From a virus (taxonomy: Duplodnaviria > Caudoviricetes), in the IMG/VR virus record IMGVR_UViG_3300028048_000045, positions 64,001-128,000 of that record: DNA of 64,000 nt. One strand, given 5' to 3'. A program made the position numbers and the translations under genes. This document shows, in pieces, positions 4,070 to 54,461 of this stretch (position 1 is its first letter; the number at the start of each line of letters is the position of its first letter). The notes beneath the pieces were generated by a model that was not told the origin of the DNA, did not search any database, and saw only the letters and a list, made by a program, of their open reading frames with translations.

Positions 4070-7000
4070 TTATTCACCTACTACATTAACTGTAATATCA
4101 GGTTCGAAAACTATCGATCCGTCATCCGTAGATGTTACTTTTTGTGATACAGTTAATACTTCAGTTGAAACACTGGTATCATTTACAATGGTCTGTACCT
4201 CACCATTTTTATAATCATTAATTCTTACTATGTTAATGTATTCGATATCTGGAACAACTCCCTTAATAGCTTCGAAAAGACTATCAGTTGAGAAATTGTT
4301 ATCTCCAAGAGTTTCGATATAATTAGCAGTAGTAGAAATTATTTGAGAACGTTTGAATTCTATAGATTCATTAGTTTTAAATTTAACTCTGAATTCTATT
4401 TTCAAAGCTATATTCGAAATGTATTCATAATTGTTTGTTGAAAGTAAGAATGCTTTATATTTAGAAGATTTGCCAGAAGTATTCTTCAATCCTCCAAAGA
4501 TTTTACCACCATCAAACATATTAGAACGAATCTTAGAAATATTATCAGTAATATTTAAATACTTTTCACGAATTGTATTAAACATATCTTCTGAAGAGAA
4601 GTAAAGTCTATTAATCCATGGAACGTTTTTAATAATACCGATGTATTCTGTAGTTAAAGCTTTTCGCATTAAAGTAGGATCTGTAAATGCTTCTCTTTCA
4701 CTAAGATCTGAAAGTTCACCAGGAACATAAACTCCATTTCTAAGAACTTTCTTATACCATTTAGTATCACCTTTTTTATGCTTAATTCTAGCTTTAGCTG
4801 TATAATAATCTACACCAGGTTCGAAATCATCTAGATTTGAAACCAATGTATACATTTCATAGTTAGGATCGTAAGTATAATATTGTACAGTATCATCCGG
4901 ACCATATTCTATTTCATCTTCTGTTAATTTTGTATAATCATATACGAAATCTCCAGCTTTATGAAGAATCTTAAACTTAGGAACTACATTTCCACCTTTA
5001 AGTGAAATGAATATTGGTAATCCATCTTCTCCAATCTCAACTACATTTTCATAATAATTAGGATCGGATTTATTTTTAGATTCAGGATCATAATTCTTAT
5101 TAACTACATATTCTGTAGTTTCATAAGTTTCACCAACATCTTGTTCATAAGTTTCATATCCAGGAATTCGAGTTTCAATATCAAATTCTAGACCAAATGA
5201 TTCTGACATATTTTCAACCAATTTTACATAATCAGTTTCATATGAGATACAATCAGCATATCCATCAAACTTAGCAGATAATTCAAATTTAACTTCAGTA
5301 TCAACGTTATAATACACAGTATAATCTTTTGAAACTAAACTTGTATTACGTATACCTTTTAATTGAATTTGAGATTCATCTGTTACGAAGTTATTTGTTG
5401 TTACTGTAGCTTGATAAGCGATGTATCCATCTTCAAGCATAGTATCAACGTTAACTATTTTAATTTTTGTAGGATCTACTACATAAATAGTACCTGTATT
5501 CTTTCCAATCATTTTAAGATTGAATGAAATGTATTGTTTTAAATATGTACTTTCGTCTGTACTGTTTACATAGTTAATTTTATCATCAGGATCATGACAT
5601 TGAGCATATATTTTTTCAAGAGTATTTGAACCCGCATGTAATACAAATGAGAAGAAATAAGTATTTGCTAAATCTTTTTCAAATGTACCATCTATAGAAC
5701 CCTTAAATGGGTTTCTTAATATTTTTAAGAAAGGAACATCTACTTTATCCAATGTATAATCTTCTTTATAAGATTTAAATGATAAAATTTCCGTTTTATT
5801 TACAGTCATATCATAAACTGTAATTTTAGGATTTGTACTATTCTCATAACGTATATAGAATGGGAATTGTGCCTGTAAAATAGATTCAATATTAGATGTA
5901 TCGTTATAATCCAAAATATACTGTTTCCAAGATTTCAAATTCTTAGAAGGATCACCCTCATAGATTTTTGGAGAATATTCGAAACGTCTAGTTTCACTAT
6001 CATATGAGAAAACATCTGTAGGTTCAATCATATAATAATTATAACCAGAAATCAATAACGGTTTCTTTTTCAAATCGAAATAGAAATTATTAGATCCTGT
6101 TGAAAGAATCATATCATTGTAAACTAATTTGTCTAGAGCTTTATAGTAAAGATTGATAACATCGTGTCTATACTTCCAAGCATCCAAACCATATTCTTTA
6201 GCTTTATTAATGATTTCGTTTCCAGAAATAAGAATATTACGAGTATATTTTTTATTGATAACTTTTGCACGAATTTGTTCAATGTCAGTCTGATTAGAAC
6301 CACCTGTTGAAGCTTCATCACGAGCGAAAGCTAAAACAACAATATTCATTACAGTGTTTTGATAAGATATTGCTAAATCTTGAGCATAGTTGATAGTTAA
6401 ACTATTTAAATTGTTTATCATATTAGGAAATTTAATATTTCCTTCTTCACCCTTAGTTGTGTAAGTAACAATTCTTAATTTATCACCAATACTTAATGAA
6501 GCAACACCATTCATTTTACTAAACGTAATATTGTAATTCTGTTTATTACGTTTATAATCATAACTGTAATTGTATGAATTTTGTATTAATGGAGAACCAT
6601 CTGTAAATCCTTTCATAAGAACTTCACCGGATTTATTCTGACGAGTTCTAAATACTTCAACACCTATTAAAGAATCACTAAATGAAACTGTTGTATCTGC
6701 TGTATTAGGATCTGATACGTAAACTTCTGTTTCTTTACGTTCCATTTGAAACATCTTTAAGAAGAAAACTACATAAACATTACCATCGTATCTCATTTCA
6801 CGAGATGAAATGTATTGATTATTTATACCATAAATTAATCGCATTCCATCGTTATTATGATCAGGCATATTATATGTAGCAAAAATATTTACATCTCCAT
6901 CAGAAAGCTGTTTTACATTTACGATTACATCATAAGGTAAAGTAAAACTTGGATGGGATTCAAATACCGCAGTCATATTTTTATTAATAATTATTTTCTT

Positions 7001-7384
7001 TAAATCAGGAGTATCAATATCATCGATTGCATATTTTAGAATATCTTCTTTCTTTAAACAGAAAGCAATGGTAGTTGACGCTGGAGTACCAAATATACCT
7101 AATAATTCATCGGAATTTAACTTATTTATTAAAGATTTTGGTAAAATTGCTGTAGATTCATTTGTTTCATTGATTCTTGCAGCAGATTCATACATCATTT
7201 TGGCTGCACCTTGAGCTGTAAGATGCATAAAAATATTGAATGAATTACCTGGATCATCTGTTAATTCTTCTGTTTCATTAAGGGCATACTTTTTAAACAT
7301 TTTAGACCAAGCAGCTGTTAGAGCCATAGCACTATTATGATTATTGGCTTCTATAACGTCTTCAATATTAATTTTTGTAGCCAT
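4070..7384 (-). CDS. Baseplate wedge subunit (T4 gp6 / baseplate J-like)
   Basis: 1104 aa; GGSNQTDIEQIRAK motif typical of gp6/J wedge proteins; aaggag RBS; late promoter motif upstream. Confidence 0.65.
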   Translation of the reverse strand: MATKINIEDVIEANNHNSAMALTAAWSKMFKKYALNETEELTDDPGNSFNIFMHLTAQGAAKMMYESAARINETNESTAILPKSLINKLNSDELLGIFGTPASTTIAFCLKKEDILKYAIDDIDTPDLKKIIINKNMTAVFESHPSFTLPYDVIVNVKQLSDGDVNIFATYNMPDHNNDGMRLIYGINNQYISSREMRYDGNVYVVFFLKMFQMERKETEVYVSDPNTADTTVSFSDSLIGVEVFRTRQNKSGEVLMKGFTDGSPLIQNSYNYSYDYKRNKQNYNITFSKMNGVASLSIGDKLRIVTYTTKGEEGNIKFPNMINNLNSLTINYAQDLAISYQNTVMNIVVLAFARDEASTGGSNQTDIEQIRAKVINKKYTRNILISGNEIINKAKEYGLDAWKYRHDVINLYYKALDKLVYNDMILSTGSNNFYFDLKKKPLLISGYNYYMIEPTDVFSYDSETRRFEYSPKIYEGDPSKNLKSWKQYILDYNDTSNIESILQAQFPFYIRYENSTNPKITVYDMTVNKTEILSFKSYKEDYTLDKVDVPFLKILRNPFKGSIDGTFEKDLANTYFFSFVLHAGSNTLEKIYAQCHDPDDKINYVNSTDESTYLKQYISFNLKMIGKNTGTIYVVDPTKIKIVNVDTMLEDGYIAYQATVTTNNFVTDESQIQLKGIRNTSLVSKDYTVYYNVDTEVKFELSAKFDGYADCISYETDYVKLVENMSESFGLEFDIETRIPGYETYEQDVGETYETTEYVVNKNYDPESKNKSDPNYYENVVEIGEDGLPIFISLKGGNVVPKFKILHKAGDFVYDYTKLTEDEIEYGPDDTVQYYTYDPNYEMYTLVSNLDDFEPGVDYYTAKARIKHKKGDTKWYKKVLRNGVYVPGELSDLSEREAFTDPTLMRKALTTEYIGIIKNVPWINRLYFSSEDMFNTIREKYLNITDNISKIRSNMFDGGKIFGGLKNTSGKSSKYKAFLLSTNNYEYISNIALKIEFRVKFKTNESIEFKRSQIISTTANYIETLGDNNFSTDSLFEAIKGVVPDIEYINIVRINDYKNGEVQTIVNDTSVSTEVLTVSQKVTSTDDGSIVFEPDITVNVVGE

Positions 7385-12518: not shown

Positions 12519-13859
12519 ATGGCTAATTACCACGAATTCAGTATCGAATCTGCTATCATGCCTTCAACAACACGTAGATCTGTTAAGATCGAAGGTGTTA
12601 ACAATGTAAAGAAGATCTTCGCAGATCCTTCTAAATCTACAGAAGCATTTATCACAGGTGCTATTGCAGATACAGGCGCAGCAGACCGCAATATTATGTA
12701 CGTAAACAAAACCCTCGGTGCTCTCAGTGATCGTCTTCAGACAGCTGCTAAGATTGCAAAATCTGTAAACACTGCTAAAGACAGAGGAGTAGAGGGATTC
12801 CAGTCAGTTGAATACCTCAATCCTTGGGAGTATGCAATTGAAGGAAAAGCTTCAGAATTCTTCAAGAAAGTTTGGGAAGCAATCAAGACAACTTGCCGCA
12901 AGATCATTGCAGCAATCGCTAACGCTATCAAATGGTTGTCAAACCAGATCCAGTCAGCTTTCACAAAAGCTCAGGTTAAGGATTACAACTATTACAAAGC
13001 TAACAAAGCTACTCTTGGTGCTGTTGCTAAGAAATCTAAGTCAACTGTAAAATCTATTGAATGGGTACCTGCAAGTGAATTCTCTAAGGTTCTCGCTAAG
13101 TTCAATGGTGAATACATGAAGGTTGTACGTTCTAAGTCAGCTGACATGGCTACAGTTGAAAAGATCGGTAACATGGATGCTTCTTTGCTTACTGATCCTA
13201 CTAAGTTTGGAAAGATCTTCTCAGAAGCTAATGCTGGCTTACATTTGGGAAGCTCTGCTGAATCTAACTTCAAAGGATTCCGCACAGTATTCCAGAAGAT
13301 GATCGACTCTATCAATAAAGAACTTGAAGATGTAACTACAAGTGCTTTCGGTAGAGCTCAGGAAGGAAAACAGAATGCACATTCTGTAGTTTACGGTAAA
13401 CTCGCTAAGGGTGATACTGTAAAAGATATCGCTGTTTCTAAACTTTGCTCACTTTCTGGTGACTTCTCAATTCTTTCAGATTCATGGATGGCAGACAATG
13501 TTAAGTCTTATGTAACTCTCTGTAACGAAAGTATGAAAACTTTCACACAGTATACAAAGGCTATTGACAAAGTTGCTGCAGCTTTTGATCGCGCTGTTGC
13601 TAAAACAGGTGAAGAGAACGCTAAGATTTCTTCACTTTCACAGCTTACATCACAGCTCTGTAACACACGTTGTCGCTACAACTCATACATGAACTCTATC
13701 TTGCTTGAAGTTGAATCTGCAGCTCTCCGCTATCGCCGTTCAGCTCATAACGCTCTCAAAGCTGTTATTGCTGAAGTAAAGGGTGGTCCAGCTAAAGCTG
13801 CTAAAGCTAAGGCAACAGAATCTTATCAGTCAGTAGAATCACTTTTTGTTTTTGACTAA
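12519..13859 (+). CDS. Abundant inner-head protein (phiKZ internal head protein-like family)
   Basis: Start moved to the ATG at 12519 (aaggag RBS). SIE/STE/SVE/AIE sites precede amphipathic FFKKVWEAIK...IIAAIANAIKW. Strongly biased, high-expression codon usage. Confidence 0.65.
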   Translation: MANYHEFSIESAIMPSTTRRSVKIEGVNNVKKIFADPSKSTEAFITGAIADTGAADRNIMYVNKTLGALSDRLQTAAKIAKSVNTAKDRGVEGFQSVEYLNPWEYAIEGKASEFFKKVWEAIKTTCRKIIAAIANAIKWLSNQIQSAFTKAQVKDYNYYKANKATLGAVAKKSKSTVKSIEWVPASEFSKVLAKFNGEYMKVVRSKSADMATVEKIGNMDASLLTDPTKFGKIFSEANAGLHLGSSAESNFKGFRTVFQKMIDSINKELEDVTTSAFGRAQEGKQNAHSVVYGKLAKGDTVKDIAVSKLCSLSGDFSILSDSWMADNVKSYVTLCNESMKTFTQYTKAIDKVAAAFDRAVAKTGEENAKISSLSQLTSQLCNTRCRYNSYMNSILLEVESAALRYRRSAHNALKAVIAEVKGGPAKAAKAKATESYQSVESLFVFD

Positions 13860-17104: not shown

Positions 17105-18931
17105 ATGGAAAATAACGAATTTGGAATGGAAGCCATTATCAGTAATGGTTTAGGCTTCTCAGATTCTCTTTTCAATACTAAGAAAACAAATTTCGATGGC
17201 GATTTTGATTCTATGAGTCTTGAAATAGCTTCTACAGAAAACCTTGTAAATTTTGCTGAAACATATAATCAACTTGATGCATATAATGCTGATCAGAAGA
17301 TTAGAATGTTGAAGAAACTTCATGTACATACAAATAATGTGCCTGGAAATTATGGTAAATCTGTAGAAAAATTTATTGTTGAACAGTCTCTTGAAGAGGC
17401 CGCTACTAAAGAAGCTGCTGGAGAAACATCTGGTGCTAATCCTGCTAAACTTCCTAATGGAGCTATTGGTAAACAACGCGATGGCTTTATTGCTAAAGTT
17501 TGGCAAACACTTAAAGATTTATTCTTTAAAATCGTAGATTGGTTTAAAAAGAAACTTCAGTGGATTGCTGATAAAATTGGTAAACGTCCAACTACATCAG
17601 AATCTATTCAGGCTCTTTCTTCATGTACAAGTGAAGAAGCTAAAGATATTTGGGATACACTTCTTGAAAATGACATCGATGCTTCTACTAAATCAAGTGA
17701 ACAGGGTAAAGTAATTTGTATTTCTGCTAACGCTATTAACAAATTTGCTGCAAATGTAGAAAAATTTGATATGGTTGGTCGTAGACTTATTGCTTGTTCT
17801 CAGACTGTTGAAAAACAGGGTGGATATTTAGCAGCTAATAAAGACTCAAATCTTTCATATAATGATATTATTTCCAATGTTAATGGAATTAAATCACAGT
17901 TAGCTGAATTTATTCCTGGTGGTAAACAGGTTCCTGAAACAATTCAGAAACTTACTAAGGAAGATATCACTAAGTTCAATAGACAATTTAAAGAATGTCT
18001 TTCTTATTTACAATGGGATCATGATCCTGAGGGTTATGCTAAATTATTCACAGGAACAAATCTTATTGCTAAAAAGGCTGGTGGAAATGCCGCATCTGTA
18101 GCTGCTGCTCAGTATGGTACTACAAATCCTGCTGAATTAAGAAAACTCATTCCTTCTTTAACAGAATCTTTAAAAACTATTGATTCTACATTGACTAAAT
18201 TACAGCACGATGTAACAGAAGCTGATAAAGCTTTTAATAGATATATTTCTCATAAAGATCGTAACATTGCTGATGGTAATGGAAACCTTAAAGAATATAA
18301 AGGTGGAGATGAAAATTACGCTAATGCTATTATCGTATATCAGTTTGCTACTACAACAATGACTTGTTTCAAAATGTTGAATAAGTTAATTCAAGTAGCT
18401 GTTACAGTTTATAAGAAAATGGATGATGAATTGGTTAAATTGACAAACGTTCTTGATAAAGCTGCTAAAGCTAAAAAAGAACGCAAATGGTTCCAATTCA
18501 AAAAGAAAGATCGTGATGCTAAGAAATCTAACGATACTCTCAAAGAAGCAGGTCTTGATACCGAAAATGAAGAAGAAGTAGATAAGAGAAATGCTAATTG
18601 GGACAAACTCGAAAAGTTTGAAAAAGGTGCTAAGGCTGCTGGAAAAGCTATTGGTAACGGTGCTCAGAAATTTGGTAAAACTAAACCTGGTACTGGTATC
18701 AGAAATGCCGCTGATGCTATAGCATCTGGTGTTAAATCTACCGCTCAAGATCTTTTAGGCAGAGATAAAGAAGCTGCTAATACTAGAAAGAATTTGGAAA
18801 AACGTATCAATAAACGTGAAGCCAATGCTGAAAAACGTGCTAACGCTGCAGCTAATTCTAGAATGGCTAAAGATAATGCTAGAACTAAAACTACAGAATC
18901 TTGGCTGCTTGATCCTGAGAATTATATCTAA
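17105..18931 (+). CDS. Inner-head protein paralog
   Basis: GME/SLE/STE/SVE/SLE propeptide followed by FIAKVWQTLKDLFFKIVDWF; late motif at 17016-17028; aaggag RBS. Confidence 0.65.
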   Translation: MENNEFGMEAIISNGLGFSDSLFNTKKTNFDGDFDSMSLEIASTENLVNFAETYNQLDAYNADQKIRMLKKLHVHTNNVPGNYGKSVEKFIVEQSLEEAATKEAAGETSGANPAKLPNGAIGKQRDGFIAKVWQTLKDLFFKIVDWFKKKLQWIADKIGKRPTTSESIQALSSCTSEEAKDIWDTLLENDIDASTKSSEQGKVICISANAINKFAANVEKFDMVGRRLIACSQTVEKQGGYLAANKDSNLSYNDIISNVNGIKSQLAEFIPGGKQVPETIQKLTKEDITKFNRQFKECLSYLQWDHDPEGYAKLFTGTNLIAKKAGGNAASVAAAQYGTTNPAELRKLIPSLTESLKTIDSTLTKLQHDVTEADKAFNRYISHKDRNIADGNGNLKEYKGGDENYANAIIVYQFATTTMTCFKMLNKLIQVAVTVYKKMDDELVKLTNVLDKAAKAKKERKWFQFKKKDRDAKKSNDTLKEAGLDTENEEEVDKRNANWDKLEKFEKGAKAAGKAIGNGAQKFGKTKPGTGIRNAADAIASGVKSTAQDLLGRDKEAANTRKNLEKRINKREANAEKRANAAANSRMAKDNARTKTTESWLLDPENYI

Positions 18932-19825: not shown

Positions 19826-21139
19826 ATGGAAACAACTTCTTATAAAGACTTCCTATATTCTGTAGAAGCGGAAGTCGCAGAAAAAAAGAAACAGATTGAA
19901 AAACAAAATGTTTCTGCTTCTAAACCCGTAGAGAAAAATTCACATATGGTAGCTGCTAAGAAAGCTGAAAAGCCTTCTGTTTTTGATCAATTAAAAGAGT
20001 TACCAGGTAAAGTAGATAATCTAAATAAACGTTTTAAACTTTGGAAAAATCAAAGAAAGAATTTAGGTTTTTATAAACGTTATTTGGATAGAGTTGAAAG
20101 CGGGTTATATTCAAGATATGGATCAGATTCATATGTTTTTGAAAACGAAATGATTGATGATCCTGTAAATATTCTCAAAGGCCCAGCTCAAGAATATATT
20201 CGTGATATTGTGGCAGATGTAAATAAGCTGTTTAAACAAGTTTTGGATATGTCTAAGGCATTAGAAACTAAGACAACAGCTGAAGGTGCAATCTCTGTAG
20301 TAAACGGATATGTTAAAGAGTACATAGGTCAAAATATAAAAGGTCAGAAAGTTGACCAAAATAAACTTTCATGGCGAGATAAGATTCTCAATGCTACTAA
20401 ATTTAAAATTGCTAATATCTTATTAAGATATGGTAAACGTGAAGTTTATGGATACACTGCAAAAAATATGGTTTTAAAAGGATATCCTCCTGCAAATCAT
20501 TTAATTGTAACTATGTTTGTAAGTAATCCAGAAGAACATCCTTCTAGACGTTCTATAACTTCAGTATTTACTAGTCCTGAATCTTTCAGAATTCTCGCAG
20601 ATTCTGATAAACAAGATGTCTTCAGTGTAGTTGGTATGACTACTTCTGTCTTAAGTAAAACTGTAGACGGAAAAGTTATGAATGATATCAAATTATCAAA
20701 ATCAAATGCTATCAAAGAATTTAAAGCAAGCAATAATCCTAATAAATCTGATGAAGCTAAAATCATCGATTCTATATGGGATGGTATAAATGTTTCTTGT
20801 AAAGAATTACTTGGTAGAAAAAGTTATTTTATCGACTGTATCAATGTTTATTATGATATGATTCTTAGAATCGATCGTTTAGCAGTTTTAGCAATTAAAT
20901 CTATGCTTGATACTGAAAATGCTTCTCGAGATAAAGGTTATAAGAATGGTGCTCAGTATAAACGAGATACAAATGATTACCGTGATGGACAAGTTCAAAC
21001 TGCTACCGATAGACAAATTTCTAGACTAGAAGAAAAACATGCTGGTGCTAAAAATGGTAAAGTTTATCGAGAAGGTTTAAATTCTAATGCTCATCAGGTA
21101 AATGAAATTGCAAAAAAGGTTAACAAAATGAATAGATAA
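19826..21139 (+). CDS. Probable virion protein
   Basis: 437 aa; late motif at 19795-19807; SVE site at residues 12-14; lies within the inner-head array. Confidence 0.45.
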   Translation: METTSYKDFLYSVEAEVAEKKKQIEKQNVSASKPVEKNSHMVAAKKAEKPSVFDQLKELPGKVDNLNKRFKLWKNQRKNLGFYKRYLDRVESGLYSRYGSDSYVFENEMIDDPVNILKGPAQEYIRDIVADVNKLFKQVLDMSKALETKTTAEGAISVVNGYVKEYIGQNIKGQKVDQNKLSWRDKILNATKFKIANILLRYGKREVYGYTAKNMVLKGYPPANHLIVTMFVSNPEEHPSRRSITSVFTSPESFRILADSDKQDVFSVVGMTTSVLSKTVDGKVMNDIKLSKSNAIKEFKASNNPNKSDEAKIIDSIWDGINVSCKELLGRKSYFIDCINVYYDMILRIDRLAVLAIKSMLDTENASRDKGYKNGAQYKRDTNDYRDGQVQTATDRQISRLEEKHAGAKNGKVYREGLNSNAHQVNEIAKKVNKMNR

Positions 21140-21234: not shown

Positions 21235-22578
21235 ATGGATAATTCAAGAAGCCTTGAAGCACTTTACCAGGATGGAACTGGTATGGTATCTCTTCCTAAA
21301 AAATCATACAAAGCTTCTATCGAAGGATATGATGGCTTTGACGATATTCTTTCTGCCGATTTAGCTAAATCTGAAGAAAATCTGGCATTCCTCGATACAT
21401 TCCAGATGATCGAAGCTAAGAATGCTGCTGACAAAATGAAGATGTGTAGAAAACTTGCTGCTAACTACGGTTCACGTTCTGGTATGCCAGCTGGTGCTGC
21501 TACATCTGTAGAATCACTTTGTAACATCATGTCACTTGAAGCTGAAGAAACAGCTGAAGCTGCTGGTATTAATACAAAAGATGAAAAAGCTAACAATCCT
21601 GAAACAACTAAAAAGAAAGGCGAATTCTTTAGAACAATTTTCAAAGCTATTAAAGATTTTTTCAAAAACATTTGGGATGTTTTTGTTGGAATGATTAGCA
21701 AAATTGGCTCATTATTTAAAAAGAAAGATGCTCCAACAGAAACAAAAACATCATCAGATACAGTTGATATGAATGTCAATGGAACATCTGATAATAAAAC
21801 TGCAACTTCTTCAGCTACGAATGGACGCGAAACAGGTTCTAAATTAAATTTAGATTATGAAATATTTGTAGATATTTCTAAATTTAATCCAGCAGGTATT
21901 AAAAACTTCTCTAGCAAATATCAGAATACTTCAAAAGCTGTAAAAACTTTCTCAGAAGGTCTTAAAAAAGCTGAACAAGCAAGTGCTGAAAAACGTAATA
22001 CTTTTATGGATAATGAAGGTAAAAAACTTATTGAAGCTATTGATGCTACTAGTTCTATTGTAGCAGGAGTTGCTGATAGACGTAAAACTCTTGGAGCTCG
22101 TGGTGATGCTAAATCTATTAAAGCTGCACTTGATGCTGCAAGTAAAGATCTTCGTTTCGAAGCAGGTTCGGATAATGCTTATACAGTTCTTCAGAGTCTT
22201 TTTGGTGTAACAGAAGATAAAAAACTCAGAGAAGCTGCAAAAAATAAACAACAGGTAGCTAAAAAATATCTTGATGAAATTGCAGATCGTAAATCTAGAA
22301 TGCAGTCATATGTAATTAAATCAATTACAGATATTCCTTCTCAGATGAAACCTTCTCACGACTTAATGGTTCAAATTTGCGATGAATATGAAGCTAATAT
22401 TAATACTTATTTAGGAAAAATTGGTTATAATGCCGCAGATCCTAATAAAGGTCAAAATAATAATGCTTCAGAATATTATACAAGTTTGACTGTATTAACA
22501 TCTGCTTTGAAGGTTTGTACTAAAATCGAACAGGTTGTTGTTAAAGCTGTTTCTTCAATGATTAAACTTGTAAAATAG
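21235..22578 (+). CDS. Inner-head protein paralog
   Basis: Start moved to the ATG at 21235 (aaggag RBS). The propeptide aligns by eye with 17105..18931 and is followed by FFRTIFKAIKDFFKNIWDVF. Confidence 0.65.
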   Translation: MDNSRSLEALYQDGTGMVSLPKKSYKASIEGYDGFDDILSADLAKSEENLAFLDTFQMIEAKNAADKMKMCRKLAANYGSRSGMPAGAATSVESLCNIMSLEAEETAEAAGINTKDEKANNPETTKKKGEFFRTIFKAIKDFFKNIWDVFVGMISKIGSLFKKKDAPTETKTSSDTVDMNVNGTSDNKTATSSATNGRETGSKLNLDYEIFVDISKFNPAGIKNFSSKYQNTSKAVKTFSEGLKKAEQASAEKRNTFMDNEGKKLIEAIDATSSIVAGVADRRKTLGARGDAKSIKAALDAASKDLRFEAGSDNAYTVLQSLFGVTEDKKLREAAKNKQQVAKKYLDEIADRKSRMQSYVIKSITDIPSQMKPSHDLMVQICDEYEANINTYLGKIGYNAADPNKGQNNNASEYYTSLTVLTSALKVCTKIEQVVVKAVSSMIKLVK

Positions 22579-48267: not shown

Positions 48268-48654
48268 TTAGAAATTACTACTAGATGTTTGATCTGGAAG
48301 AACTTTATCCAATATAACTTCTCCACCATAAATAATTCTATCCCAAGCAAGTTGGGATTTTTGAACATTTAAACGTTCCAATTCAAGTTCTTGCTGCCGT
48401 ATCTGTTCACGTTCTTCGAATTCCGCTTTTCGAGCAGCTTCTCTTTCAGCAATGTGAACTTTTTCAGTTTCCAATCGACTTTTGTTCTGTTCTTTAATTT
48501 GTTCAATAAGATTATTAGCTATAGCTTCTCTAGCTTTGTTTTGTTGTTCTAATAAAGCTTTAAAACTTTCAGGATTAGTTTTAGCTAATTCTAATTCCTC
48601 GGGTTCAAGTTTCATTTGAAAACTATTTGTTTTTCGATCGAAAATAAATTTCAT
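48268..48654 (-). CDS. Coiled-coil early protein, paralog of 54072..54359
   Basis: EELELAKTNPESF vs EELELAKANPEAF; shared leader. Confidence 0.6.
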   Translation of the reverse strand: MKFIFDRKTNSFQMKLEPEELELAKTNPESFKALLEQQNKAREAIANNLIEQIKEQNKSRLETEKVHIAEREAARKAEFEEREQIRQQELELERLNVQKSQLAWDRIIYGGEVILDKVLPDQTSSSNF

Positions 48655-48762
48655 ACAAAATTTCTCCTTATAATTATTATAATATTTAAGAACTCATGCG
48701 AATTCTTTACATTATAATAATATATAAATAAAAAAGAGAGGATTTATATCCTCTCTTTATCT

Positions 48763-49971: not shown

Positions 49972-50044
49972 AAACTTATTTATCTCCTCATTTTTATAAT
50001 ATATAAATAAAACTAGGGAATATTTTTTCCCTAGTTCTAATTAT

Positions 50045-50800
50045 TTATTTTTTATCATATTCAGATCTAATCATATTTCTTAATTTTTCAATTTTCAAAT
50101 TATCCGTAAATATGTAAGTGTATTTATGAGCTATTTTATACATAGTGCGTTTCTTTTTATCTCTTTTAAGAGCACGAATCGTACTAGTTATACCAGCAGT
50201 TCCTTTGAAAATTATAGGATAAGTTTTAAGCTGCTCATAATTAATGATATTATCTTTATCATTTAATGATAACCAAATTTGAACGCCTTCAACTATTATT
50301 TTATGAGATAATTGTTTATTCATAATATAATTTATAAATTCTTCAGCCAAATCATAACATTTGTGTTCATTTCTATGTAATTTAGCATATTCGTTTTCTT
50401 TAAAGAATTCACAAATTATAGGATCTATTTTATTAAAATCTGAATCGGTAAACATATCTGGAGTCATAATATCATCCAATTGTATTAAACTACAATGATA
50501 TTTTTTAGACAATTCTCCACCTAATGTAGTTTTACCAGAACCAGAAAAACCAGTTACAAATAAAATATTATAGTTACCATTTTCAAATTCTTTTAATTTA
50601 TAACATTCATCATCAATTGTAAAAATTAAATTTTCATTAGATTCTTCAGCTTTATCTAAATCAGGATCTTCATGACCATTGTTACAGTCACCGAGTTGAA
50701 AATCTCCAACAGTTTCTACACCTTCATCCGGTCCAAAAAGACCTTGAGAACATGCGTAAACATTCATTTCAGTAGCAAATATTTTATCATTATTAATCAT
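50045..50800 (-). CDS. P-loop nucleotide/nucleoside kinase-like protein with an N-terminal virion-type leader
   Basis: VTGFSGSGKTT, IQLDD and IIVEG motifs; leader MINNDKIFATE. Confidence 0.7.
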   Translation of the reverse strand: MINNDKIFATEMNVYACSQGLFGPDEGVETVGDFQLGDCNNGHEDPDLDKAEESNENLIFTIDDECYKLKEFENGNYNILFVTGFSGSGKTTLGGELSKKYHCSLIQLDDIMTPDMFTDSDFNKIDPIICEFFKENEYAKLHRNEHKCYDLAEEFINYIMNKQLSHKIIVEGVQIWLSLNDKDNIINYEQLKTYPIIFKGTAGITSTIRALKRDKKKRTMYKIAHKYTYIFTDNLKIEKLRNMIRSEYDKK

Positions 50801-50811
50801 AACTATTTTCC

Positions 50812-51705
50812 TTATTTAGAAAAATCTAAAACAACCATATTTATTAACGATTGTGTTGTACCATGATGATCACCGCCCCAAGTTTTTTCATAATAAATTT
50901 TATTTGGTTCTAACTTAGGTTTATTTCCATCTTTCCATTGTTCATATTCTGTCATAGGAATATTCATTTTATTACAAGTATCTTCGACGACCTTATCAAA
51001 TACTTTATCAAATTTAGTGGTATCCGAATCATCATAAGATTCATCCAATGTATATCGTTTTAAACCATCTAAACCAAATGAGTATTGTTGTACAAGAATT
51101 TCTACTTTTTCTTTATTTTGAATAGCTTTAGCAATATCTATACATTTATTCCATAAATGCGTAGATAATTCATTATATTGATCGCTATCATCTTCACAAT
51201 CGTAAATAGCAATATAATGTTTAGGATCAATTTTACTTATTTCATTTTTTAGAATTGGAACAACAGTTTTGCCAAATTTATTAGCTAAATTCAATGTTCT
51301 AGTTATTTCATTTTGCAATCGTTTTAACTCGGGATGATTTTTTATTTGTTCGAAAGCAGCATCTTCAGCTTTTCTTTCTTCTTTATATTTTTCATAGCGT
51401 TGTTTAGATAATTCTTTTTCTTTTGCTTCTTTACGTTTTAATAAATATTTGTATAATGGTGTTTTTCTATAAAGAGGTAGAATTATATATGCTAAAAGAC
51501 ACCATGCTAAAGCCACAGCACCCAACCCAATTTGAATTTTTTCAAGTATATTAGATTCTTGCGACTGTTCATTATCTAAATATTTATCAAGATCTGGATC
51601 TCCAGTAGTTCCTGTTTCAGGATCATACCGTCGCTCAGCTAATCTTTTCAATTTTTCTTCTATAGTGAAAGATTCGCAAGAGAATATCTTATCATTATTA
51701 ATCAT
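50812..51705 (-). CDS. Membrane-anchored protein with an N-terminal virion-type leader
   Basis: MINNDKIFSCE...DPDLDK...SQE followed by transmembrane IGLGAVALAWCLLAYIILPLY. Confidence 0.55.
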   Translation of the reverse strand: MINNDKIFSCESFTIEEKLKRLAERRYDPETGTTGDPDLDKYLDNEQSQESNILEKIQIGLGAVALAWCLLAYIILPLYRKTPLYKYLLKRKEAKEKELSKQRYEKYKEERKAEDAAFEQIKNHPELKRLQNEITRTLNLANKFGKTVVPILKNEISKIDPKHYIAIYDCEDDSDQYNELSTHLWNKCIDIAKAIQNKEKVEILVQQYSFGLDGLKRYTLDESYDDSDTTKFDKVFDKVVEDTCNKMNIPMTEYEQWKDGNKPKLEPNKIYYEKTWGGDHHGTTQSLINMVVLDFSK

Positions 51706-52160
51706 TGTTGTACTCCATAAGCTTTTTTAAAAGCATCAATAAATATATTCCAACCAGGAAATCCTGGAAAACTTCTATCATCTAAATAATAATCAGCATA
51801 AATCTTTTTTGAAGGTTTAAAATTTATACTATCCGAATTATCATTAGCTTTTGTAACTTTAATACCATTAGCCAATAAAAATGCTAATGCTTGTTTAAGA
51901 TATTCGCCATCTCTACAAGTCCATAAAATAATTTGAACTCCAAAAGATTGTAAAAACTTTATAGATTCGATAGCATTCGGTTTAACTTTACCAATTTTTG
52001 GAAAAGTATCATCGACAATTGTACCATCGAAATCTACAGCAAGTATCAGTTTATCACTAGGTTTATTAAAGTTACCAATAGAAAGGCCGGTAGGATTTAA
52101 TATAGTTATAGGTTCAGTGTTCATAACTTCATATGAAAATAATCTATTATTATTGATCAT
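51702..52160 (-). CDS. HAD-superfamily phosphatase with an N-terminal virion-type leader
   Basis: AVDFDGTIV, LWTCR and KIYADYYLDDR motifs; start at 52160 (ggtga RBS) gives MINNNRLFSYE. Confidence 0.8.
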   Translation of the reverse strand: MINNNRLFSYEVMNTEPITILNPTGLSIGNFNKPSDKLILAVDFDGTIVDDTFPKIGKVKPNAIESIKFLQSFGVQIILWTCRDGEYLKQALAFLLANGIKVTKANDNSDSINFKPSKKIYADYYLDDRSFPGFPGWNIFIDAFKKAYGVQQ

Positions 52161-52905
52161 CTTTGTCACCAAAATCTATATTACCGTAATCATTTCCAGA
52201 GAATTTAACCTCTAGACCAGCAGCTTTGCAGAAAACTTCTGTAGTATTAACTGCCTGTTTATTGTGAGTTCGAATATCCAAATCAGATAATCTAACATCA
52301 CCAGTTGATACAATAGTATTCAACATTTGTTGTTTACTTATTTGATCATCTGCACGAGGACCAAGGAATTCTTTAAGAGCATTAGTTTGATTTGTTGCAG
52401 CTAACGCATAAGTCTGAACGTTTGTAGTAGAAGCAGTTTTATCTTCTTGTACAACCTGACCAGTCAATGGGTTAATATGATCACTACTATTAGAAATAGA
52501 GTTTTTATGTTGCAACATCTGCTGGAAGAATCGTCTAATTGGACAGTAAATAATTGGTACCTTTGTTAATGTACACATTGGTTTGCCTCTAGGATTTCTA
52601 AAAGGCATAAATACATATTCGAATAAACCGATCTTCCATTTATCAGCAATAGCTTTAATCTTTTCAAGAGTCATATTATCAGACTTTTTCTTTTCAAGTT
52701 GATTAATATCTATAAAAAGATTTAAATCATCCTGCTCTATATATTTCTTCATCAAATCAATGAATTGTTTATCTGACATTTTAGCAAAAGCTATTCTATA
52801 AGTATCAGCATTAAATCCTGAAGGATCAATATCATCCATTAATTTGTAAATATTTTCTTCATACTTTTTACGTATTTTTTTAAACTGTTCAGCAGAAACT
52901 TTCAT
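52150..52905 (-). CDS. rpoB: RNA polymerase beta-like subunit, C-terminal fragment (virion RNAP, phiKZ gp149-like)
   Basis: QQMLQHK..NPLTGQ...TYALAA..ALKEFLGPRADD parallels the beta C-terminal TQQP...WALEA..LQEMLT.KSDD; late operon. Confidence 0.75.
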   Translation of the reverse strand: MKVSAEQFKKIRKKYEENIYKLMDDIDPSGFNADTYRIAFAKMSDKQFIDLMKKYIEQDDLNLFIDINQLEKKKSDNMTLEKIKAIADKWKIGLFEYVFMPFRNPRGKPMCTLTKVPIIYCPIRRFFQQMLQHKNSISNSSDHINPLTGQVVQEDKTASTTNVQTYALAATNQTNALKEFLGPRADDQISKQQMLNTIVSTGDVRLSDLDIRTHNKQAVNTTEVFCKAAGLEVKFSGNDYGNIDFGDKDDQ

Positions 52906-53354
52906 TATATAATAATCCTCCTACCATAGTCATAGGCATAATTTATATAGTCGTAACTTTCGAGAGATTCATCCATTTCATTAAATTCATAACAAAAATA
53001 ACGAATCTTTTCACAAGAATAATTATTAGTCATTATCTTAGCCAAATTATATTTTAAAGCATTTTCTTTATTATGAAAATGCTTAATTTTATTATCATCA
53101 GTTCTAAGATAATAACCCGATTTATCAGAATAAATCGAAAAGAAATAAGATTCAACTGATCTATCCCAATTACCACTATCTATTTGCAAGACATACGAAT
53201 CTTGTTTTATGTGTTCTAAGGATAACATTGAATCTTTTAATTTATCAAATGAATTTTGGTTTTTATGCTTATTTGTAAAATCTTTAATAGTACTATAAGC
53301 GTATTTAGGTGTAAATTCATATGATTCGAAACTAAAAATTTTAGCCAAATTCAT
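52905..53354 (-). CDS. Hypothetical late protein with a leader-like N-terminus
   Basis: MNLAKIFSFESYE; late motif at 53384-53396. Confidence 0.5.
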   Translation of the reverse strand: MNLAKIFSFESYEFTPKYAYSTIKDFTNKHKNQNSFDKLKDSMLSLEHIKQDSYVLQIDSGNWDRSVESYFFSIYSDKSGYYLRTDDNKIKHFHNKENALKYNLAKIMTNNYSCEKIRYFCYEFNEMDESLESYDYINYAYDYGRRIII

Positions 53355-53453
53355 AATTGTTATCCCTAATGTTTAATCGTAATATATAGAAATGTCAATT
53401 TAGAAAAAAAAGAAGGATACTTAAATTTCTCCTTCTTTTTTAAAAATCATCAA

Positions 53454-54071: not shown

Positions 54072-54359
54072 TTACTCATTCGAAAGTTGCGTGTTATCAC
54101 ATATAATAGACATAATACATTTTGTTCTCGATTCGAACATTTGATAAGTTTTCTCATGTTCTATTTTAGATTTTTCAACTTCCATTTGTTGCAATTCAAT
54201 TTCTTTTTCATGAACAAGTCTTTCAGCATCAATCGATTTTAATAAATCTCTTTTATAATTGATATAATTGGTAAATGCTTCCGGATTAGCTTTAGCAAGT
54301 TCTAATTCTTCTTTAGTCAATCCGATACCACTAATATTAGATGTTTTTAAATCATCCAT
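54072..54359 (-). CDS. Coiled-coil early protein, paralog of 48268..48654
   Basis: Shared EELELAK.NPE.F motif and duplicated leader; aaggag RBS. Confidence 0.6.
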   Translation of the reverse strand: MDDLKTSNISGIGLTKEELELAKANPEAFTNYINYKRDLLKSIDAERLVHEKEIELQQMEVEKSKIEHEKTYQMFESRTKCIMSIICDNTQLSNE

Positions 54360-54461
54360 AATAGTCTCCTTAATTATTATGATATTAAGAATTCATACAA
54401 ATTCTTTACATTTTAATAATATATAAAACAAGAGGGAACAGATTCCCTCTCGTTTAATTAT

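Follow-up and report, generated by a model that had tools for sequence, protein, structure and literature searches.

A candidate portable N-terminal capsid-targeting leader on unrelated late proteins of an uncultured jumbo phage related to AR9 and phiKZ

How giant phages with virion RNA polymerases select the proteins that are packed and injected is poorly understood, and published work on phages of the phiKZ type describes long propeptides, with only hints at targeting. This question is raised by a late operon of five tightly packed genes (positions 53354 to 50045, minus strand) found in a 64,000-nucleotide (nt) stretch of DNA, hereafter the window, comprising bases 64001-128000 of one 276,071-bp record (IMGVR_UViG_3300028048_000045; 29% G+C): why do four of the five encoded proteins, the bodies of which are unrelated, begin with the same kind of short peptide? 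The answer favored here, to which a probability of roughly 60% is assigned, is that this tag is an N-terminal capsid-targeting and clip-off leader of the type represented by the capsid-targeting sequence (CTS) of phage T4, in this case in a jumbo phage related to AR9 and phiKZ. The most economical reading of the sequences would be that head components of the phage itself employ this leader and that variable accessory proteins have taken it over.

The phage itself can be placed by its 1003-amino-acid (aa) portal-like protein, which is about 22% identical to the portals of Bacillus phages AR9 and PBS1 and of Staphylococcus jumbo phages. As megablast moreover returned no DNA-level match for the region among cultured phages, the source is, on these sequence grounds, an uncultured gut jumbo phage distantly related to AR9 and phiKZ.

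The tag, found on four of the five operon proteins, is 10-11 residues long and corresponds to the consensus M-x(3-5)-[KR]-[IL]-F-[SA]-x-E. Re-translation confirmed the four N-termini as initially annotated. In the order of transcription, and all on the minus strand, a 149-aa protein of unassigned function (52905..53354) starts with MNLAKIFSFE (53325-53354); a 152-aa HAD-type phosphatase (51702..52160; phrog_1238, 8.5e-26) has a leader of 35 residues (52056-52160) that opens with MINNNRLFSYE (52128-52160); a 297-aa membrane protein (50812..51705) has a leader (51556-51705) in which MINNDKIFSCE (51673-51705) is followed by a spacer ending in a Q-S-Q-E site, with one transmembrane segment after the leader; and a 251-aa P-loop kinase-like protein (50045..50800; Pfam AAA_18, AAA_33 and SKI matches, all below cut-offs) has a leader of 56 residues (50633-50800), in which MINNDKIFATE (50768-50800) is followed by a module resembling the capsid protein (50696-50767) and then by an acidic spacer with S-N-E at its end. 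The remaining gene, between those of the 149-aa protein and the phosphatase, encodes an untagged, 251-aa virion-type RNA polymerase beta fragment (52150..52905; phrog_3233, 6.5e-41). Given that homologues of this fragment in phiR1-37 and many Erwinia jumbo phages carry the annotation of virion structural protein, it is reasonable to label it a piece of the virion RNA polymerase, as had been proposed. The bodies behind the four tags gave no match to one another in an all-against-all blastp comparison (E<=1e-3). The DPDLDK ... S-x-E pattern reported for both the kinase and the membrane protein is present, and the DNA of their tags is indeed identical at 22 of 23 positions, an identity that stops at the ATG and does not extend upstream.

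That the motif is enriched at the beginnings of proteins is apparent from its distribution in the genome. Of 11 occurrences of the pattern [IL]F[SA].E in 84,600 residues, six lie within 11 residues of a start. Likewise, [FY][SAG].E ends 7-15 residues after the start in 13 of 238 N-termini, as compared to 17 of 1609 internal methionines (binomial p ~1e-4), counts that are not fully independent, as the three MINN copies are probably related by descent, with the additional carriers being unlinked. In total, short N-terminal tags of 9-14 residues were found on 9-10 late-type genes. The same tag residues are spelled by different codons (TCT, TCA or AGT for serine, ATT or ATC, TTT or TTC) and no similarity exists upstream of the ATG, such that the conserved unit is the peptide and not a DNA cassette; a shared promoter or ribosome-binding-site cassette is thereby ruled out. 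The exact spelling is lineage-specific, since the strict DNA pattern for MINN[DN][KR].F[SA].E was found in IMG/VR only in a 99% relative. Three other occurrences were set aside, namely, an internal KIFATE in a 650-aa protein (genome 167441-169393) and IFANE in an RNA polymerase-like protein (genome 190827-192470), both treated as chance events as neither is kept in the orthologue from relative G002 (263 kb, about 60% protein identity to the present genome), and METIDNFGSE on an RNase-H-like protein, which is not conserved in its orthologue.

The timing of expression predicted for the tagged genes fits that of head proteins. Two promoter classes were recognized, namely, an early-type class, TATATTAT-N6-G/A, with 76 sites in the genome, 47 of them intergenic, and a late-type class, [GA]ACA-N6-TATA, with 58 sites, 38 of which lie in the intergenic 8.3% of the genome. 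These match, respectively, the experimentally defined early (AAATATATATTAT-N6-G) and late (AACA-N6-TA/G) promoters of AR9 (PMC5312081). A late-type element, GACA-N6-TATA (53383..53396, minus strand), lies 29 nt upstream of the first ATG of the operon, downstream of the terminator of the preceding early gene, a hairpin followed by a T-run (53410..53435, minus strand) that was read from the sequence as the upstream operon boundary. At the other end, a second hairpin and T-run follow the kinase stop codon (50013..50034, minus strand), a plausible ribosome-binding site precedes each of the four tagged starts, and on both sides the operon is flanked by small genes with early-type promoters, the promoter at 49989-50003 (minus strand) lying downstream of the operon terminator. 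The operon, like every convincing tagged gene, thus belongs to a late-type unit behind an AR9-like late element. Among 83 genes behind early-type promoters, only two motif matches were seen, both requiring an internal methionine start and therefore not counted. No early gene bears a convincing tag, and MNNKYFGF (35802), offered in the initial annotation as a looser copy, was dropped, as it lacks the glutamate and lies behind an early-type promoter.

Several further observations were made on these promoters. Early-type promoters, which also include those at window positions 48655-48720 and 54360-54420 (both minus strand) and some 45 further intergenic sites across the genome, in many cases have a terminator hairpin and a TTGTAAA box ahead of them, and are almost identical to the AR9 consensus although the proteins of the two phages are only about 22-30% identical. 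Late-type GACA-N6-TATA elements precede structural genes. A small early paralogous family sharing the motif L-x-x-E-E-L-E-L-A-K-x-N-P-E (window 48268-48654 and 54072-54359, both minus strand, and genome 218418-219636), each member of which lies behind an early promoter with the conserved leader GTAAAGAATT.GTATGA.TTC, contributes the two paralogues that flank the tagged operon.

The notion that the tag ends in a protease-type site gains support from the phage's own protease. The protein encoded at genome 30352-31230 matches head-maturation-protease families (phrog_207, 1.9e-9), and its homologues at 57-65% identity pass the Pfam Peptidase_S80 threshold (the phiKZ gp175 family), with weaker matches to S77 (the T4 gp21 family); the copy in this genome falls below the Pfam thresholds. 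This protease is itself tagged, starting with MGNSNIFSCE, behind the same late element (22 nt upstream of the gene), and contains a second F-S-x-E site at residues 22-25. Across 66 protease homologues, down to 50% identity, conservation is seen at both the N-terminus, M-x(1-5)-[IL]-[FY]-S-x-[ED]-[RK], and the second site (residues 20-25), which reads D-[ML]-F-[ST]-x-E. Related enzymes cut after glutamate, at A-x-E in SPN3US and S-x-E in phiKZ (PMC5694885, PMC10052503), and the tags, ending in [FY]-[SAG]-x-E, fit the published S80 motifs S/A/G-x-E and A-x-E. The end of the tag is therefore the predicted cutting site of the phage's own S80-type protease. In many of the protease homologues, aspartate replaces the first glutamate while the hydrophobic part is kept. 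In the T4 CTS, aspartate at the last position blocks cutting and still allows targeting, and T4 gp21 carries a comparable N-terminal site, LIE-9, proposed to target gp21 to the prohead (PMC9026906). By analogy, the protease variants seen here would form a close parallel to the T4 CTS and gp21.

The tag is not confined to one late operon; a search of the whole genome and of relatives revealed further carriers. Apart from the protease, a very acidic 274-aa protein (genome 22000-22824), encoded after a homologue of an AR9 virion protein, presents D-I-F-S-M-E at residues 7-12. Four large late proteins encoded on the plus strand of the window also carry such sites. A 446-aa protein (12519..13859) starts with MANYHEFSIE (F-S-I-E site); a 608-aa protein (17105..18931), a paralogue of the product of the 21235-22578 gene, starts with MENNEFGME (F-G-M-E site); a 437-aa protein (19826..21139) has a Y-S-V-E site, with S-V-E at residue 14, that is kept in its 50%-identical G002 orthologue; and a 447-aa protein (21235..22578) starts with MDNSRSLE (R-S-L-E site), its G002 counterpart starting with MLGNNYSFE. 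The block containing these four genes is syntenic with that of AR9 virion proteins gp212-gp215. Searches of PHROGs and Pfam gave no match for most of the large tagged proteins, nor for the operon's membrane protein and 149-aa protein; an untagged neighbor gave a match to a virion structural family. As a separate observation, the acidic 274-aa protein (L002:8000-8824) shares a stretch of 81 residues, at 48% identity, with the C-terminus of an otherwise unrelated 400-aa protein (genome 246887-248089; L014:8887-10089).

A first indication that the leader is a portable unit comes from comparing near-identical strains, namely, the window, L017 and L148. In L148, which has a 100% identical polymerase fragment, the 55 residues of the kinase leader precede a 288-aa multi-transmembrane body, DNA identity to the window being 95-100% over some 165 nt of the leader and about 27% thereafter. 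Divergence among the membrane genes of the three strains sets in immediately behind the 11-residue tag or behind a Q-S-Q-E site that they share, such that the body differs in both L017 and L148 and the tag and S-Q-E site are kept; mosaic junctions and predicted cut sites hence fall together. Being carried by different proteins in near-identical strains, the leader is most likely a swappable capsid-loading label. Such body swapping behind a fixed leader suggests fast cargo turnover, which is typical of host-defence conflicts. The phosphatase provides a second line of evidence. PDB entry 2obb aligns only to its residues 36-146, and the best 12 of 341 matching phage records align from residue 35-38 onward, indicating that the 35-residue leader is an addition that the homologues lack. 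The portability initially claimed for the leader is thus borne out both by the strains and by this extension. Overall, the initial reading is supported in part, as the computational tests applied to portability and protease cutting all favored it.

Tags also occur in more distant genomes. G002 carries them on the protease (MKSSNIFSCE), an adjoining protein (MSDLFSME), three large proteins and the 149-aa orthologue (MKIMFGYE). Beside its polymerase-fragment gene, it encodes a 284-aa protein, different from the accessory proteins considered here, that starts with MKMSDTMSYE. As G002 contains neither the kinase nor the phosphatase, these enzymes are accessory; the window's membrane protein is absent as well. 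A profile of kinase-type leaders (alignment A4) found 26 cluster representatives (E<=1e-3) among 1.84 billion metagenome proteins. Apart from a few repeat-protein matches, these comprise at least five kinds of body, some 20 more proteins being recovered in this manner, and include kinase fragments, the multi-transmembrane body, a family of about 300 aa and others, together with several leader-only open reading frames (ORFs); one body has a borderline SUKH-1 (SMI1/KNR4) match. Tag variants in metagenomes include MVNYDKIFSIE and MIDNKKIFATE.

The leader-only ORFs deserve mention in their own right. Several such proteins of 55-67 aa (e.g., P0137, P0141 and P0146) were recovered in the metagenome search. 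In L149, a 66-aa leader-only ORF (5927-6127, plus strand) overlaps the next cargo gene (6114-7010, plus strand) by 14 nt in another frame, an arrangement also found in G002 (L034), and in L153 a kinase-type leader is fused in frame to the body family of the L149 cargo gene. This could reflect gene fission or fusion, or a product joined by frameshifting. As to the two accessory enzymes, tblastn against phages gave no match for the kinase body, and the kinase has neither a detectable phage homologue nor a specific family assignment; the phosphatase also weakly matches a polynucleotide-kinase family (phrog_415, 7.6e-4). The presence of both in one tagged cluster is consistent with a possible split kit for end healing, similar to T4 Pnkp.

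What, then, might the leader resemble within the head? A 654-aa protein (genome 38677-40641) was identified by its fold as the major capsid protein. Its model, of modest confidence (predicted local distance difference test score, pLDDT, 60), matched in Foldseek the capsids of S6 (9e-13), phiKZ (2e-10) and phi-kp24 (4e-10), and by VIA that of phiKZ (Z 11.4; root-mean-square deviation, rmsd, 15.1 Å; 303 residues aligned) and further jumbo-phage capsids (Z 11.3, rmsd 15.7 Å, 281 aligned; Z 10.3, rmsd 14.8 Å, 300 aligned), the VIA alignments covering model residues ~155-635. A phmmer search of the protein against the PDB gave no match, the identification coming from the fold search only. In this protein, a helical stretch (residues 1-100) is followed by an invariant Glu 107 in a [GST]-x-E site, then by GWGGG, a VY-x-S-S-x-G-x-F stretch and IIGGW, and by an invariant S-x-E at residues 141-143. 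Kinase-type leaders present, in the same order, [SA]-x-E, VY-x-[CS]-SQG-x-F and I/V-G-[GD]-[YF]. A profile of capsid residues 98-146 finds the leaders at E values of 1e-5 to 8e-4 among 4078 ORFs, and in the reciprocal search two capsid proteins are the first non-leader matches (E ~0.002). Applied to capsid homologues, the leader profile scored 11.8-21 bits on 67 of 67, as compared to at most 11.7 bits on 1340 shuffled controls. From the aligned ranges of solved capsids, we estimate that Glu 107 is the likelier capsid maturation site, in which case the leader-like stretch would start the mature N-arm.

The first residues of the tag point to a different head protein. Directly upstream of the capsid gene lies that of an acidic 229-aa protein, scaffold-like by position and composition, which starts with MINHSKILSFS. 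Relatives about 70% identical to it start with MINHxxIFS, and more distant ones start with an E-S-Y-E site, then SLFF. The operon tag is thus close to the N-terminus of the scaffold-like protein with a glutamate added, and looser versions of the tag start both the scaffold-like and capsid proteins. Across lineages (two complete genomes), our impression is that the scaffold N-terminus and the cargo tags covary. Taken together, these likenesses allow for a tentative proposal, considered possible although rather unlikely, that the leader is a composite mimic, the first nine residues of which copy the scaffold-like N-terminus and, in kinase-type leaders, the next 25-35 of which copy the capsid maturation junction and the start of the N-arm. 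Foreign proteins would in this manner pose as pieces of the shell or scaffold, and strains would swap cargo behind a fixed label. Were this so, the choice of injected proteins in giant phages of the AR9/phiKZ type would follow a general rule, which would also offer a means of loading proteins into such phages.

The sequence of events envisaged is as follows. Tagged proteins would be made late in infection, along with head proteins. Their exposed, disordered leader would bind a component of the prohead core, such that the protein is built into the prohead. The S80-type head protease would then cut after the glutamate of [FY]-[SAG]-x-E, at residue 9-14, with longer leaders being cut a second time at S-x-E some 50-56 residues in. 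The mature protein, freed inside the capsid, would finally be delivered to the host cell together with the DNA and the virion RNA polymerase. The leader itself is a movable module, found ahead of a P-loop kinase, a HAD-type phosphatase and membrane proteins, among other bodies, and the body that follows varies from strain to strain. Core binding, cleavage, encapsidation and injection of the tagged proteins are steps that we infer.

The best surviving alternative, although improbable, takes the leader to be a propeptide that serves only for cleavage, being removed by the head protease or keeping the enzyme inactive until cut, with no role in targeting, the protein entering the prohead by other contacts or being cut elsewhere. 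Such a propeptide would account for the fit of the motif to the S80/T4 cutting rule, and most published giant-phage propeptides show cleavage and not targeting (PMC10052503). Yet, the hydrophobic part of the tag is kept where glutamate is replaced by aspartate, as in many protease homologues, or by lysine, as in 149-aa orthologues, which points to a role beyond being cut. Moreover, T4-type head proteases are expected to work inside proheads, so that cutting would itself imply encapsidation.

For the membrane proteins only, the leader might bind the prohead core while the body, in the cell membrane, tethers the prohead until cleavage releases it, in which case these proteins would not be cargo. 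Three leader-bearing bodies do have transmembrane segments directly after the S-x-E site, and the release of SPN3US proheads from the inner membrane is believed to require the action of the protease (PMC10052503). Still, this explanation is a doubtful one, as the genes in question are variable and accessory and are absent from the 60% relative G002, which would be odd for an assembly factor.

Even less probable is that the 5' coding stretch is chiefly a recombination anchor for swapping accessory genes, the peptide having no function in assembly. Junctions exactly at leader ends in near-identical strains, and the DNA of two tags, identical at 22 of 23 positions, are what such an anchor would leave behind. 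However, unlinked tags spell the same residues with different codons, the protease (at about 30 kb in the genome) and large late proteins carry the tag as well, and it persists at 50-60% protein identity, a level at which no DNA homology is left; nor would a pure DNA anchor require the junctions to lie at S-x-E sites. Finally, chance resemblance of short AT-rich N-termini, conceivable in a genome of 29% G+C with many Asn/Lys/Ile-rich gene starts, is scarcely credible in light of the enrichment over internal-methionine controls, the conservation in relatives, the mosaic junctions and the profile that recovers leaders on other bodies.

Several points nonetheless weigh against the capsid-targeting reading. 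The polymerase fragment in the operon and other RNA polymerase-like proteins are untagged, meaning that at least one further way into the capsid must exist besides the tag; packing of the SPN3US polymerase requires that the complex be assembled (PMC5694885). Membrane proteins, an awkward kind of capsid cargo, account for three of the leader-bearing bodies. A scan of AR9 N-termini revealed no comparable tag family, such that no published virion proteome can be transferred to the present case. The three MINN tags do not appear to be independent events. The similarity between leader and capsid protein covers only some 30 residues and is low-scoring. Lastly, although all four operon tags end in a glutamate site here, as initially claimed, this does not hold for the orthologues of the 149-aa protein, in which the hydrophobic part of the tag is kept and glutamate is found in two of six, lysine in three of six and no tag in one. 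The 149-aa tag, the weakest of the four, may accordingly go uncut or be only tag-like.

The 149-aa gene always adjoins that of the virion polymerase fragment in relatives. The AlphaFold2 model of the protein (pLDDT 85) shows disorder over residues 1-14, which is what an exposed tag would lead one to expect. Foldseek gave only weak papain-like or transglutaminase-like matches for the model (SseI, vasohibin; E ~0.1), and the family has an invariant Cys121 and no invariant histidine. A possible role for the protein is that of a factor associated with the polymerase, bearing the tag on behalf of the polymerase piece that lacks it. In relative G004 (L020:5367-6026, plus strand), the orthologue has no N-terminal tag and bears a capsid-like leader module at its C-terminus (E 1e-5 with the capsid-segment profile).

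If the capsid-targeting reading is true, the selection rule could be read from sequence by virtue of the likeness of the leader to scaffold-like and capsid proteins, and the set of proteins injected by uncultured gut phages would become predictable. In the present phage, this set would include a kinase, a phosphatase and membrane proteins, which may act in the first seconds of infection. A route to loading chosen proteins into such capsids would likewise be opened.

In comparing the leader with known systems, the closest precedent is the T4 CTS, which, as covered in a review, is carried by internal proteins IPI-III and Alt and removed by the prohead protease gp21 (Mullaney and Black, 1996; PMC9026906). 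As in T4, a leader of about 10 residues lies at the extreme N-terminus, ends in hydrophobic-x-Glu and is found on variable proteins unrelated to one another, a similar N-terminal site exists in the protease, and aspartate, which in T4 permits targeting without cutting, occurs at the last position in relatives. Unlike T4, the present phage is related to AR9 and phiKZ, with multisubunit RNA polymerases, an S80-type protease and Ser/Ala/Gly at P3. Some of its putative leaders extend to 50-56 residues, with a second predicted cut site and a capsid-protein-like module, and the bodies include enzymes and membrane proteins.

AR9 and PBS1, the nearest cultured relatives as judged by the portal (about 22% identical), share with the present phage the early (TATATTAT-N6-G) and late (ACA-N6-TA) promoter types, the split into virion and non-virion RNA polymerases and the synteny of the virion block. 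The tag family described here sets it apart from AR9, in which the N-termini scan found none.

In phiKZ, 201phi2-1 and SPN3US, head and ejection proteins have propeptides cut by gp175/gp245 (MEROPS S80) after S/A/G-x-E or A-x-E (PMC5694885, PMC10052503), that is, by the same protease family at the same kind of site. The initial annotation knew of no such tag in this phage group. Short, conserved S/A-x-E N-terminal pieces had, however, already been noted (PMC5694885): phiKZ gp93 is cut at SLE-13, and the first 15 residues of the SPN3US paralogues gp53 and gp54, which include AXE-12 and SXE-15, are identical. Long propeptides of the phiKZ type are cut more than once, as predicted for the longer leaders described here. 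The main difference is one of length, these propeptides being mostly of 111-254 residues as compared to leaders of 10-11, 35, 50 and 56 residues. Furthermore, N-termini in the phiKZ type are shared by paralogues only, whereas the present tag is found on non-homologous proteins and is exchanged between bodies, and SPN3US gp245 is cut at its C-terminus and not its N-terminus, whereas the protease considered here has conserved N-terminal sites. As such, and relative to the literature searched, the kind of system is already known from the T4 CTS and the S80 propeptides; what appears to be new is a short portable tag in a phage of the AR9/phiKZ type, with composite scaffold- and capsid-like leaders and the swapping of bodies at the level of strains.

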